A DNA stretch of 64,000 nt from Candidatus Spyradenecus sp. (GTDB taxonomy: Bacteria > Verrucomicrobiota > Verrucomicrobiia > Opitutales > UBA953). The position numbers and the translations under genes are program-made. The notes under the pieces are model-generated. The model made no database searches. It saw nothing but the letters and a program-made list of their open reading frames with translations, and had not been told where the DNA came from. Shown piece by piece: positions 57-61,985 of the stretch. Location of the stretch: positions 160,001 to 224,000 of the forward strand of contig JAZSKX010000014.1 in the NCBI GenBank assembly GCA_045535075.1, given 5' to 3'. The stretch's first letter is position 1. Every line of letters starts with the position of its first letter.

Positions 57-90
57 AAAACCGTTCCCGTAGTCGCGGGAACGGTTTTTT
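57..90 (+). terminator. Intrinsic terminator built from an inverted pair of the motif (end of a gene upstream of the window)
   Basis: aaaaCCGTTCCCGt-agtc-gCGGGAACGGtttttt hairpin followed by a T-tract. Confidence 0.8.
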
Positions 91-155
91 ATTATTATTT
101 CTCTGAAATTTCCGGATGTTCCTGTGAATTTTACCTTTGAAATTCCCTTAAAAAA

Positions 156-183
156 TAGACTTAAAAAAACTTTCGTGCATAAT
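156..183 (+). promoter_or_regulatory. Possible sigma70 promoter for the yicC operon
   Basis: TAGACT-16 nt-CATAAT ending 8 nt before the ATG at 192; pattern match only. Confidence 0.35.
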
Positions 184-191
184 GGACGGGC

Positions 192-1100
192 ATGAGCAAA
201 ATCAGGTCGATGACAGGCTACGGGCGGGCGGGTTTTTCCGTCGGGAACGCGAATTTTACGGTTGAAATTGCTTCGGTTAATCAGCGCGGGTTGGCGGTTT
301 CGGTTTCGGCCCCGTCGGACTGGACGCCGGATGCGGAGCGACTGATTACATCGCTTGTACGGGAATGTGCCGCGCGCGGGAAAGTCTCCGTTGCGCTTCG
401 TGGCACCACGACTGCGGGAAGTACGAATTTTACTTGGGATGCTGCCGGACTTGAAGAAAGTGCCGAAAAATTATTAAAAACTTCGCAAGATTTTTGTGCG
501 AAGTCGCTTATGGAAGAACCTTTCAAACTTACCGGCGAAACTTTTCTGCGTTTGGCGGAATTGCATCGTACAAGCGCAGCGAGCTTGCCGCCTTTTGAAA
601 ATCCGGAAGTTGCTGCCGCAATCGCGACGGGAACACGCGAGGCGCTTAAACGATTTGTCGAAATGCGCAGTGCTGAAGGTGAAAATTTGGAAAAAGATTT
701 TCGCGCACGATTGGAACGTTTGCGCGACTGGGCTGTAAAAATCCGAAATGCCTCCAACGGAACGGTTGAAAACTATCGGAACAATCTGCGTTCCCGCCTG
801 GCGACGCTCGGGTTGGAAATCGACTTGGACGATTCGCGCTTTCTCAAAGAAATTGCGCTGTTTGCCGACCGTTGCGATATCGCGGAAGAATTAACACGTC
901 TCGACAGCCATTTTGCTCAATTTGAGAGTTGTCTTTCGGAAGAGGAATGCGGACGGAAACTTGATTTTATTTGCCAGGAAATTTTGCGCGAATTTAACAC
1001 CATCGGAAGTAAGGCAAACAATGCAGCCGTTACGCGCTGTGTCGTCGAAGCAAAGAATGAGCAGGAGCGTTTGCGTGAGCAGGTGCAAAATGCAGAATAA
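192..1100 (+). CDS. yicC: YicC/YloC family endoribonuclease
   Basis: N-terminal IRSMTGYGRA; C-terminal DIAEELTRL.SH, GRKLDFICQE..REFNTIGSKAN and EQVQNAE motifs. Confidence 0.93.
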   Translation: MSKIRSMTGYGRAGFSVGNANFTVEIASVNQRGLAVSVSAPSDWTPDAERLITSLVRECAARGKVSVALRGTTTAGSTNFTWDAAGLEESAEKLLKTSQDFCAKSLMEEPFKLTGETFLRLAELHRTSAASLPPFENPEVAAAIATGTREALKRFVEMRSAEGENLEKDFRARLERLRDWAVKIRNASNGTVENYRNNLRSRLATLGLEIDLDDSRFLKEIALFADRCDIAEELTRLDSHFAQFESCLSEEECGRKLDFICQEILREFNTIGSKANNAAVTRCVVEAKNEQERLREQVQNAE

Positions 1101-59037: not shown

Positions 59038-59082
59038 CAGATTCTTTGAGAAGTGTAAAGGGTTTGTTCGGGAAGGCGAGAA

Positions 59083-60858
59083 TTAATGCTGTTCGAGAAT
59101 TTTTTTGGCGCGTTCCCGTCGTTCAATTCTTTCTTGTTCTGCCCGTTCTTTTTTTCGTTTTTCGATGATCGCCCGGCGCTCCGCCTCTTTTTCTGCTGCG
59201 AGGGCGGCTTTTTCTTCCGTGTAAGTCGGAAGTTTGCGCGGGTAGCCTTTACAAGGAGTCCAAATCTTGGATTCGCCTTTAAATTTATTGCGGACTTTGT
59301 TTTTTGCCTTTTCCGAAACGTCGATTTTCCAGCGTTCGAAATAGGGAACAAGGTTTTTTTCCGTCGCTTCGGCAAGCGCTACTAAGAAGAAATCCCAACG
59401 TTCCTGATTGGTTGTCGAGTTGTTGAACGGCTGTTCTTCGTGGTGGCGCAAAGCGACTTTCCGGAAGGAGTCGTAGCCGAGCCCGCGCATGAGTTCGACG
59501 AAGAAATAAAGTTTCAGGCGTACGTCTTCTTCTTTGTCGAAAGTCGTTTTGTTGTTTTTAGTCAAAAAAGCCTGGACGCTTGCTTTCATATCTTCGGGCG
59601 CGATGGAGGTTCCGTCCCAAGCCTGCTCGTAGGAGGTGCCGATCGCTTGTGTTTGACTGATTGTTGAGAAAAGATTGACCGTTACTTCCGTGCAGCCGTC
59701 AAAGCGGAAAGGTGCCCATTGATGGTTGTGTCCCAATTCGTGCCAAAGTCCCCAACTGCCTTGCTTGACGAGCATACCGCTTTTGATGCAGTTCCCCCAA
59801 TCCATGTAGCCCATCGCGGGATAGCCCGAATGCCCGTAGCCGACGGAAATTTGTTCGTCGATGACAAAGCGCATCGGCGTCGCAATTTGGTCCGGATATT
59901 TGTCCCAACCGACAAGCCAATCCTGAACCGCCATACCGCGTTGCAGGTTTTTGCAGAGCCTGCGCGGAACTTTCAGCAGGCGCAGATGCTCCGCGGGAAC
60001 GGTAAAAATCAGGCGCGGAACGGCAATTTCACCCCATGGAGCCTTACATTCCGCAAGCTGCTTTTGCCACTCTTCCTGCTTAACGACGGCGATGTCGATG
60101 CCTTTGTCGTCTTTGTGCCCGAGGACAAAAAGCGGCGAAGCGATTCCGCCGGAAATTTCAACTCGGACGGGTTTATGCTTCGGGTGAACACCTTTGACAT
60201 CAAGATAGATTAAGCCTCCGAACGGATTTGCCAGTTCAGCCTTTTTTTCTCCCGCCTTAATGCGGACGGTATTCGTCATCTTGGGCGGGCGTTTTTGCGT
60301 GTTGTCGTGATGTTGTTCGAGGTGGCTTTTGGTGATGAAATCCGTGTGGCATCCGATACGCAAGTCCATGTCAAACTTGGTTTTCCCTTTAACCGATACC
60401 GTAATTTTGGCTCCCGGCGGCGCGTAAAGTCCCAAGCTGTGCCAACCGCCGACGGCGGGATCAATTTCCACCGTGCGCTCAATCAGTTCGACTTCGCCTT
60501 TGGGAACTCCCGGGAAAAATTCCGCGATGCGCGCCGCTTTGGTCCGTTTCGGGTCGCCGTTGAGAATATCGTCGATTTTTGCAATCCAAGCGTTGATTTT
60601 GGCGTTGTCCTTGCATGGTTTTTTCGGATGCGGTAAATCGTCCAAGGCGGGGTCTTTTTCCGCTGTTTCCCAGCTCCATTTGCCGATGACTTTATCTTTT
60701 TGGCAGGGAATCTTGTCGCGATACGTCGGCGCAAACGCATTGGTATCCAAGGCTTCTTCCATCGTAATTTCGTCTTTGACGGGAGCGGCAAGTCCGGAAA
60801 GCGTGTTTCCGCACAGAACGAACACGAAAAGACAGGTAAAAAAGCGCAAGAAATTCAT
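59083..60858 (-). CDS. Secreted M60-like metallopeptidase (enhancin/O-glycopeptidase family)
   Basis: Signal peptide from ATG 60858; WHSLGLYAPPG, NPFGGLIY, APWGE, HSGYP and WGLWHELGHNHQ…EVTVNLF motifs. Confidence 0.92.
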   Translation of the reverse strand: MNFLRFFTCLFVFVLCGNTLSGLAAPVKDEITMEEALDTNAFAPTYRDKIPCQKDKVIGKWSWETAEKDPALDDLPHPKKPCKDNAKINAWIAKIDDILNGDPKRTKAARIAEFFPGVPKGEVELIERTVEIDPAVGGWHSLGLYAPPGAKITVSVKGKTKFDMDLRIGCHTDFITKSHLEQHHDNTQKRPPKMTNTVRIKAGEKKAELANPFGGLIYLDVKGVHPKHKPVRVEISGGIASPLFVLGHKDDKGIDIAVVKQEEWQKQLAECKAPWGEIAVPRLIFTVPAEHLRLLKVPRRLCKNLQRGMAVQDWLVGWDKYPDQIATPMRFVIDEQISVGYGHSGYPAMGYMDWGNCIKSGMLVKQGSWGLWHELGHNHQWAPFRFDGCTEVTVNLFSTISQTQAIGTSYEQAWDGTSIAPEDMKASVQAFLTKNNKTTFDKEEDVRLKLYFFVELMRGLGYDSFRKVALRHHEEQPFNNSTTNQERWDFFLVALAEATEKNLVPYFERWKIDVSEKAKNKVRNKFKGESKIWTPCKGYPRKLPTYTEEKAALAAEKEAERRAIIEKRKKERAEQERIERRERAKKILEQH

Positions 60859-60986
60859 ACTCTCAGAATAATGAAACGCCCGTGCGCCGCTCAAACAAAT
60901 TCCTACGCGTAAATTTCGGCGGGAACGGGGAGCTTTCCGGTGCTTCCTCGCTTGCGTCGTGCGGCGACGCTTTTTAGATTGTCGCC

Positions 60987-61985
60987 ATGTATTTTAAGGA
61001 AGAATCCGAACGTTTCTCTAAATTGCTTGAAAAGCTTGCCGGCAAGCGCGTCGCCGTTATCGGGCATGTGCGTCCGGACGGCGATTGTATCGGTGCGCAG
61101 GTCGCTCTCTGCCGTATTTTGCGTTCCCGCGGCATTGATGCCGTTTGCGTCAATCACCATCCTGTTCCTTATAATTTAAAAAACTTTGTCGGCGATACAC
61201 CGTTTTTTCATGAGCCGGATTTTGAAAATGACGGGCGAATCGCCGTTGCCGTGGACTGCGGAAATCTTTCCCGACTCGGAAAATCGCTTCTCGAAAAGGC
61301 GTTCCCGCAAGGCGTCTTTGCGGCAATCGATCACCACGAAACCAACGAATTTTTCGCGTCCGAAGAAAACATCGTCGTCACGCGTGCCGCGGCAACGTGT
61401 CATTTGCTCGCCGCGTTTTGCTTGGATTGCGACATTTCGATCGATCCGGTGTTGGCAAACGCGCTTTATGTCGGAATCGCGACCGATACCGGGCAATTCC
61501 AATATTCTTCGACAACGGCGGAAGTGCTTGAAATTGCGGGAAAACTCATTCGCGCAGGTGCCTCTCCGGAATTTGTTTCACGCGAACTTTACGAACAGGA
61601 AAAATTTCAAAAACTCGAACTGCTCCAACGTTATCTCGCGACCGCGCAACTCTATGCCGACGGCAAAGTCGCTGTTGCATGGATTCCCAAAAATGCTTTT
61701 GAAGAAACGGGAACGACGCGGGAAGATGCCGACAATTTTGTCAATTATCTGCGCGGGATCGCAGGCGTTCAAATCGCGTGTCAACTCGAACAATCGCATA
61801 CGGGTGTGAAAGGAAGCCTGCGTGCGCCTAACGACCGGATTCGTGTCGATTTGCTCGCAAAAAAGTTTAACGGCGGCGGGCATATTCGCGCTGCCGGATT
61901 CAATCTTGACGGCGCCGATCTCGATCGCGACCGCGAACGAATCATTGCCGTCATTCTCGACCACCTGAACGCGTCTGCGTTCTGA
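60987..61985 (+). CDS. nrnA: DHH/DHHA1 phosphoesterase (NrnA-like oligoribonuclease/PAP phosphatase)
   Basis: HVRPDGDCIG, IDHH, GIATDTG.F and GGGH..AAG motifs. Confidence 0.9.
   Translation: MYFKEESERFSKLLEKLAGKRVAVIGHVRPDGDCIGAQVALCRILRSRGIDAVCVNHHPVPYNLKNFVGDTPFFHEPDFENDGRIAVAVDCGNLSRLGKSLLEKAFPQGVFAAIDHHETNEFFASEENIVVTRAAATCHLLAAFCLDCDISIDPVLANALYVGIATDTGQFQYSSTTAEVLEIAGKLIRAGASPEFVSRELYEQEKFQKLELLQRYLATAQLYADGKVAVAWIPKNAFEETGTTREDADNFVNYLRGIAGVQIACQLEQSHTGVKGSLRAPNDRIRVDLLAKKFNGGGHIRAAGFNLDGADLDRDRERIIAVILDHLNASAF

Follow-up and report, generated by a model that had tools for sequence, protein, structure and literature searches.

What holds a short, non-palindromic DNA word in thousands of copies on a bacterial chromosome, inside genes as well as between them? 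The question is raised by a stretch of 64,000 bases from Candidatus Spyradenecus sp. (hereafter the window: positions 160001-224000 of contig C1 in assembly G000, which has 1,949,087 bases in 18 contigs and is 99.45% complete), in which an earlier note, made from the letters of the window, had described the heptamer CGGGAAC/GTTCCCG as a likely uptake signal for natural transformation. We show that a word of about nine bases of duplex DNA is imposed on the whole chromosome, that a sequence-specific force holds it in 15 species of the genus, and that this force is off in a sister clade. From sequence comparison we tentatively read the word as a DNA uptake tag, with biased uptake as the maintaining force, and assign this reading a probability of roughly 45%.

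A nine-base word across the chromosome

The window holds 215 copies of the heptamer (119 on the forward and 96 on the reverse strand), compared with 13.46 ± 3.83 in 100 dinucleotide-preserving shuffles, the largest of which contained 26 and none of which reached 215. The 9-mer GCGGGAACG occurs 111 times, compared with 2.19 ± 1.40 in the shuffles. The count given by hand in the earlier note, about 32 sites in the first 10 kb, proves exact (17 on the forward and 15 on the reverse strand), and its remark that the word stays abundant until about 61.7 kb agrees with a last site at 61708. Across the G000 genome, this word ranks first at each length from 6 to 12 bases, with 6528 copies of the 7-mer (3169 and 3359 on the two strands), 5159 of the 8-mer CGGGAACG and 3244 of the 9-mer. 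Markov models of order 1, 2 and 3 predict 425, 589 and 1324 copies of the 7-mer and 61, 82 and 187 copies of the 9-mer. For the genes we relied on our own heuristic calls, 1541 open reading frames (ORFs) that account for 89% of the genome; when synonymous codons are shuffled inside each ORF and the proteins are kept, 934 ± 19 genic copies remain (12 shuffles, maximum 959) against 5629 observed. The enrichment, which the earlier note had proposed to set against dinucleotide and codon null models, persists under the dinucleotide, Markov and synonymous-codon nulls alike.

The logo of the genomic sites reads [C/T][G>A]CGGGAAC[G][C], and all positions beyond it, including those past +9, carry at most 0.03 bits. 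The core is sharp, since variants of the 9-mer that differ by one base at positions 2 to 6 number only 3 to 191 copies against 3244 perfect ones. A T-rich 3' flank, mentioned in the earlier note as an impression, is weakly visible (T at 0.28-0.31 from +10 to +13) and originates from the subset of sites in terminators; otherwise the flanks contain no information. With 9-10 informative bases and random flanks, the word is not a repeat element. We also considered a hairpin with a GNRA-like loop (GCG-GGAA-CGC) and rejected it: positions 0 and 9 do not covary (mutual information 0.009 bits), as expected for a protein that reads duplex DNA and not for a hairpin.

All six reading frames are used (sense 696/1710/961, antisense 1427/392/440), and 902 further sites are intergenic, which corresponds to 3.25 sites per kb of coding and 4.14 per kb of intergenic sequence; coding DNA holds 86% of the genomic sites. 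One site, placed near 41509 by the earlier note, lies at 41511-41517 on the reverse strand within the transfer-messenger RNA (tmRNA) gene (41281-41660, forward). The six frames, the intergenic copies and the tmRNA copy show that the signal is read at the level of DNA and not of protein. The 6S RNA gene (8102-8282, reverse) is flanked on both sides by a copy of the motif, at 8065-8073 (forward) and 8293-8301 (reverse).

Within genes, the sites favor the sense strand at 3372:2257, or about 60:40. Replication skew was scored from the local GC skew, and sites that lie on contigs shorter than 30 kb or have an absolute skew below 0.01 were dropped, which retained 6019 of the 6528 sites. The absence of replichore skew that the earlier note supposed is borne out, with 3174 leading-strand (52.7%) and 2845 lagging-strand sites, and 434:401 among intergenic ones. 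The sense preference is similar in leading-strand genes (1826:1161, 61%) and lagging-strand genes (1283:914, 58%), implying that the small bias tracks transcription or coding rather than replication. Since a replication bias is lacking, the word is not of the Chi type or of the type of FtsK-orienting polar sequences (KOPS). Pair distances across the genome exhibit no long-range periodicity or phasing except for the codon period (9656 distances at multiples of 3, compared with 8110 and 8190 for the other phases), and the number of sites per 5 kb is near Poisson (mean 16.9, standard deviation 4.9 versus 4.1).

Closely spaced sites have a preferred orientation. Among pairs within 40 nt in the genome, the order GTTCCCG..CGGGAAC occurs 265 times and the opposite order 90 times; the former pairs have a commonest start-to-start spacing of 19, are intergenic in 166 of the 265 cases and usually have an A-run on one side and a T-run on the other. 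Such an inverted pair is found no more than 120 nt from the stop codon at 188 of 1540 gene ends, and in 151 of these a T-run (6 or more T in 12 nt) comes after it, in line with the statement of the earlier note that inverted pairs lie in terminators. By their sequence, the pairs read as two-way intrinsic terminators.

The closest DnaK relatives among the matches listed are Verrucomicrobiota (metagenome genomes of Opitutaceae, Opitutia and Puniceicoccales) at 72-78% identity. The 9-mer is over-represented in every one of the 19 genomes of the genus: 15 motif-rich species carry 3060-5581 copies and four motif-poor genomes carry fewer (G001, 746; G002, 732; G013, 760; G014, 340), compared with 34-87 copies of the reversed control word in genomes of the genus. 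In the sister genus, the only other one sampled in the family, the 9-mer has 23 copies versus 44 for the control word, and in the rest of the order none of 145 other genomes from 41 families rises above the control level. The genus spans 47% to 58% GC and shares one word throughout; samples of G003 (GC 0.578) and G009 (GC 0.470) both contain the 7-mer at about 5 per kb, which shows that the word does not depend on composition. We tried and rejected a switch of dialect in the poor species, because the same word tops the 8-mers and 9-mers of G013 and no abundant variant is present. In a sample of G014, the commonest 9- to 10-mers are CACCACCAACC-type words with about 25-29 copies in 52 kb, probably from a repetitive gene.

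These data bear on the possibility that the word arises incidentally from base composition, codon usage, a frequent peptide, a dispersed repeat or a mobile element. The codon period of the pair distances and the few dominant tripeptides that the sites spell (AGT 711 and VPA 603, followed by RER 292) would be in keeping with such an origin. Nevertheless, the excess outlives all three null models, fills six frames and intergenic DNA, comprises 9-10 informative bases between random flanks, is the same at 47% and 58% GC, and is missing from relatives of similar composition. An artefact of composition or repeats is therefore excluded, and we consider a by-product in the wider sense extremely improbable.

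Site retention across 15 species and neutral decay in a sister clade

Judged by secA, G000 is nearest to the motif-poor G001, G002 and G013 (96% amino-acid identity), and the motif-rich G004 and G018 come next (88-89%). In a maximum-likelihood tree of secA, G000 and the poor trio are sisters (support 100/99) and G014 sits on a separate branch, which requires the poor state to have arisen through two changes. The tree is rooted at its midpoint only, and given this root G014 could be primitively poor instead of changed. Identity at fourfold third positions of secA is near saturation for every pair (0.45-0.54). Three secA sites (Table 1) are nevertheless kept in the rich species purely via synonymous codon choice; at the first of them, the poor species spell the same glycine as GGG or GGC.

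To place these sites in a genome-wide frame, we took the best tblastn matches between G000 and G013 (at least 60% identity and 70% coverage; 1121 ORFs) and removed 67 with a stop in the G013 translation. The remaining 1054 pairs provide 1.17 Mb of aligned codons, with a nucleotide identity of 0.80 and a fourfold identity of 0.55. In these codons G000 has 3812 sites and G013 has 1135, of which 876 share position and strand. As controls we used 188 words that match the motif in base composition and occur 30 times or more in each of the two genomes. The probability that G000 has a site where G013 has one is 0.77, versus 0.21 ± 0.10 for the controls (maximum 0.54), while the converse probability is 0.23, versus 0.25 ± 0.10. 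G000 thus retains its sites far above the neutral rate and G013 only at that rate. The word is actively held in position in 15 species, and the sister clade lets its sites decay neutrally.

Words that miss the motif by one base are scarcer in G000 than in G013 (CGGGGAC, 127 versus 613; CGGGTAC, 48 versus 167), as expected if near-misses convert to the perfect word. Sites present only in G000 coincide with an amino-acid difference in the overlapped codons in 1486 of 2936 cases, versus about 36% expected from the background, indicating that the word is imposed on proteins by a process strong enough to alter them. Outside proteins, G013 has ATTCCCG at the tmRNA site, one base off, in a tmRNA that is otherwise 96.9% identical between the two genomes. 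Gene order is heavily scrambled between G000 and G013 despite their 96% secA identity, and most neighbors in G000 lie on different G013 contigs.

Uptake, binding or repair

In the mechanism that we favor, [C/T][G/A]CGGGAAC[G][C] would be a lineage-specific 'self' tag, spread over the chromosome through point substitutions and kept in place by a process that is sequence-specific and targets DNA, not proteins. The cells would be naturally transformable, with a surface receptor that prefers word-bearing DNA, and fragments richer in copies would be taken up and recombined more frequently. Alleles that create the motif would consequently spread and alleles that destroy it would be purged, which amounts to molecular drive. 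Molecular drive through biased uptake is the proposed model for the DNA uptake sequences (DUS) of Neisseria and the uptake signal sequences (USS) of Pasteurellaceae. The machinery might comprise a type IV pilus-like system (a secretin, three PilB/PilT-type ATPases, a prepilin peptidase and seven pilin-like proteins) along with ComEC, DprA and ComM. The word may be read by one of these pilin-like proteins or by some other protein of the cell surface that is not related to ComP, and the inverted pairs would have been co-opted as two-way transcription terminators.

The observed pattern fits DNA uptake sequences in all the traits open to in silico scoring. Competence genes, for which the earlier note had proposed a search, are present in G000, namely those for ComEC, DprA, ComM, the prepilin peptidase PilD and the pilus. 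The pilus-like set includes a secretin of about 990 amino acids, three clustered PilB/PilT-type ATPases, and seven ORFs bearing the N-methylation motif of pilins, four of them in one operon; the globular parts of these four operon proteins have no Pfam match, the N_methyl motif being the only one found.

The word is also missing from apparently foreign DNA, as the earlier note had maintained. Among the motif-poor stretches of G000, defined by no more than 3 sites in 5 kb, are C1:222-227 kb and several (C8:21-33 kb, C16:184-221 kb, C12:44-49 kb and the short contig C18) that overlap ORFs for which its close relative G013 has no match. One of them, C16:181255-221508, outside the window, contains 43 consecutive ORFs with no or weak match in G013 and carries the motif at 0.4-0.7 per kb; its GC content is normal (0.47-0.54 in C16:184-221 kb) despite the low motif density, and the region looks like a prophage. 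Similarly, the motif-free end of the window (Table 1) looks like recently acquired DNA.

Several observations weigh against uptake as the maintaining force. Any long-acting, lineage-specific drive or selection would likewise leave foreign DNA poor in the motif. DUS and USS have a density of about 1 per kb, and the density here is several times higher (roughly one 7-mer every 300 bases, and about 5 per kb in the samples of G003 and G009). The placement differs as well, with 86% of the sites in coding DNA, whereas about half of DUS and USS lie in terminators according to the accessible part of a 2025 preprint. The uptake reading of the earlier note is partly supported: the computational tests that it named came out in favor, and the reading is weakened by negative searches for a ComP-type receptor, a stand-alone ComEA and dialects of the motif. 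No match to ComP_DUS (Pfam PF16732) at E ≤ 1 is found in the 99.45% complete G000; no stand-alone ComEA was found in G000 either, where the sole good HHH_3/TIGR00426 match is an 805-residue Tex-like ORF; and the survey of the genus for dialects revealed none, with G001, G002 and G013 carrying the same word thinly. Furthermore, the competence genes are near-universal and also match in control genomes that have no uptake sequences. Within the genus, ComEC and DprA are each intact in 19 of 19 genomes, rich and poor alike, the large secretin occurs in 18 of 19 (the exception being G005, which is 92% complete) with no difference between rich and poor, and a basic set of seven pilin-like N_methyl ORFs is present in all 19. 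Since the machinery is equally intact in the poor species, the loss of maintenance is not explained by a visible loss of machinery.

Candidates for the difference between rich and poor species were evaluated individually. Loss of pilins was rejected, because at least 7 N_methyl ORFs are present in all 19 genomes and the four-gene operon is 80-89% identical in G013. A second secretin (about 780 amino acids), accompanied by one more T2SSE ATPase and about four additional pilin-like ORFs, occurs in 7 of 19 genomes (e.g. G013 C19:67270-74499) and not in G000; this group of genes resembles a type II secretion set. It was rejected as a correlate, for it is present in all four poor genomes and also in the rich G004, G012 and G018, and is hence a feature of the clade. 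We also compared gene content by searching the 1541 G000 ORFs by tblastn against about 1.976 Mb of G013 in 69 contigs (about 94% of that genome). A match was obtained for 1329 ORFs and none for 212; after filtering, 227 were absent or weakly matched. Some absences are false and stem from the roughly 137 kb (6.5%) of G013 outside the comparison, as for secA and the ORF adjoining the pilin operon, and the gene order of the two genomes is too rearranged for true deletions to be told apart. A screen of the G013 orthologues for stops and frameshifts returned 73 rows, mostly apparent artefacts of long ORF starts. No candidate gene for the rich/poor difference emerged from this comparison, which covers about 94% of G013 and in which few candidates were tested.

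The same data bear on a different reader of the word, i.e. an abundant, genus-specific DNA-binding protein, either an organizer of the nucleoid, an alternative also named in the earlier note, or a factor that recognizes self DNA for recombination or for a defence nuclease, with selection for binding keeping the sites. The sharp core with its rare one-off variants suits such a protein, as do conservation of sites far above neutral in the rich species and neutral decay in the sister clade, as if the reader had been lost or changed; the absence of the word from foreign DNA and the similarity of competence genes in rich and poor species agree with it too. On the other hand, words of the Chi and KOPS type are skewed by replication strand and this one is not, the sites are not phased beyond the codon period and their counts per 5 kb are near Poisson, and the partial presence/absence comparison yields no candidate protein. 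About half of the lineage-specific sites alter a protein, a cost that is hard to justify for interchangeable binding sites. Taken together, a binding protein seems unlikely to us.

Intracellular biased mismatch repair or gene conversion is the other process to be weighed, in which an enzyme would convert near-miss heteroduplexes to the word, as proposed for the highly iterated palindrome HIP1 and for very-short-patch repair of the Vsr type. The depletion of one-off neighbors in G000 relative to G013 is what such an enzyme would leave behind. The density is within the range reported for HIP1, which 'exceeds one motif per gene' in the accessible portion of the HIP1 literature, and positional conservation beyond neutral is likewise described for HIP1 in the part of PMC5861425 available to us. 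Yet the word is non-palindromic, and the enzymes that might act on it do not follow it. No match to the Vsr family is found in any of the five genomes searched, rich and poor. C5-methyltransferases are sporadic across rich and poor genomes (none in the rich G004, three in the poor G014, and two in G000, in or beside motif-poor islands). A 995-residue ORF (G000 C2:15779-18766) with an NPPF motif can be read from its sequence, rather than from a family search, as an MmeI-like type IIL restriction-modification enzyme; it was rejected as the driver, being absent from G013, present in 10 of 19 genomes irrespective of motif density, including the poor G001 and G014, not found in 7 rich ones, and broken by stops in some genomes. 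In a simple sequence-motif screen, by which N6-methyltransferases were covered, the only methyltransferase-like ORFs conserved in G000 and missing from G013 are this enzyme and a prophage gene. The methylase-linked site that the earlier note offered as an alternative accordingly receives no support, and we regard biased repair as quite improbable.

Apart from the word itself, the envelope genes of the window are of Gram-negative type. The sulfatase, the M60-like peptidase and the Mac-1-like ORF suggest, by their predicted families, degradation of glycoproteins or mucin. The features of the window are collected in Table 1.

Table 1. Motif sites and selected genes, with coordinates counted from the first base of the window
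Feature	Position	Strand	Remarks
CGGGAAC/GTTCCCG site field	57..61985	both strands	about 1 per 300 bases, within and between genes
Inverted pair GTTCCCG-N6-CGGGAAC	63..82	.	A-run before, T-run after; terminator-like hairpin
Mac-1-like ORF	1109-1987
secA site ACG GGA ACG (Thr-Gly-Thr)	9936..9942	+	kept in 15/15 rich, 0/4 poor
secA site TGT TCC CGY (Cys-Ser-Arg)	10401..10407	-	kept in 13/15 rich, 0/4 poor
secA site ACG TTC CCG (Thr-Phe-Pro)	10822..10828	-	kept in 14/15 rich, 0/4 poor
Inverted pair AAAAAAGCGTTCCCGC...GCGGGAACGCTTTTT	11512..11537	.	between convergent secA (8435-11464, +) and 11564-12151 (-); predicted two-way intrinsic terminator
Overlapping double site GTTCCCGCGGGAAC, 14-base palindrome	13227..13240	.	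21 in genome, often within genes
Inverted pair with T-run	22284..22307	.	downstream of malate/lactate dehydrogenase gene 21334-22260 (+)
Inverted pair with T-run	32899..32924	.	downstream of fumarate hydratase gene 31223-32872 (+)
Inverted pair with A-run and T-run	47551..47572	.	between convergent genes 44978-47524 (+) and 47602-48666 (-)
Inverted pair with A-run and T-run	54404..54429	.	between dnaK 52384-54309 (+) and 54438-55625 (-)
Sulfatase with PA14 domain	55642-57846
M60-like peptidase	59083-60894
Motif-free, low-GC (0.445) window tail	61986..64000	.	start of an island to about C1:227000, with 2 sites in 5 kb
Radical-SAM/4Fe-4S gene	62035-63234	-	in motif-free tail
ORF without assigned family	63485-63991	-	in motif-free tail

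Comparison with known genomic words

If the word is an uptake tag, self-preferring transformation would have evolved more than twice, and the strong imprint on codon choice and protein sequence would be accounted for. The host genus is one of small-genome Verrucomicrobia with genes of mucin-degrader type, and adding the word to donor DNA might raise uptake and so offer a genetic handle on a poorly tractable group. Fragment length and tag density are linked, and the high density here would suit the uptake of very short DNA fragments. The sister clade would represent a natural knock-out, with the drive off and the tags decaying, and the contrast should let comparative genomics find the receptor or its regulator.

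A prokaryote-wide terminator survey of 2026 (PMC13020248) and a 2025 preprint on uptake sequences, in their accessible parts, place such sequences in Neisseriaceae and Pasteurellaceae only, and the experimental reports in these two sources come from the same two proteobacterial families. Our literature search turned up no mention of the word, nor of uptake sequences from Verrucomicrobia. New here are the word, its density, and the contrast between maintenance and decay. Judging from the genomes, it is conceivable, although we would put it at somewhat below an even chance, that we are dealing with a third, independently evolved uptake-sequence system, the first outside Proteobacteria, and that its receptor is unrelated to ComP and its tag density exceeds all others known.

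Among known systems, the DUS of Neisseriaceae (GCCGTCTGAA and its dialects, read by the minor pilin ComP) share with our word the short non-palindromic form, the thousands of copies on both strands without replichore skew, the location inside core genes, the inverted-pair terminators, the restriction to one lineage, the absence from foreign DNA, and the presence of genes for a type IV pilus, ComEC and DprA. The present word differs in its unrelated sequence, as CGGGAAC lacks the CTG core, in the lack of a ComP_DUS family match in G000, in being a single word across the genus with no dialects seen, and in its denser and mostly coding sites. Its host belongs, by the DnaK neighbors among the matches listed, to a different phylum, Verrucomicrobiota.

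The USS of Pasteurellaceae (AAGTGCGGT core) resemble the word in having a core of about 9 bases, many in-gene copies in several frames, an imprint on proteins and inverted-pair terminators. The USS receptor is likewise not established; in its available portion, a 2025 paper only predicts a minor pilin (PMC12616744). In contrast to USS, the word has no AT-rich extended flank, its information being confined to about 10 positions, and it has an unrelated sequence and a higher density.

Chi and words of the KOPS type or the related architecture imparting sequences (AIMS) are likewise over-represented oligomers that are read by DNA-processing machines, but they are strongly skewed towards the leading strand, unlike the nearly even distribution found here.

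HIP1 of cyanobacteria (GCGATCGC) is similar in its comparable or higher density, in the conservation of its sites beyond neutral expectation and in the existence of exceptional low-abundance lineages within the group; the latter two properties are described in the accessible parts of PMC5861425 and PMC4390886. Our word differs from HIP1 in that it is not a palindrome, has no periodicity, is not tracked by any of the methyltransferases screened and is not accompanied by Vsr in the genomes searched. Whatever the reader of the word is, the 15 species that maintain it and the sister clade in which it decays neutrally make up a rare natural experiment, and their contrast addresses how hyperabundant genomic words persist, a question that is shared with HIP1.

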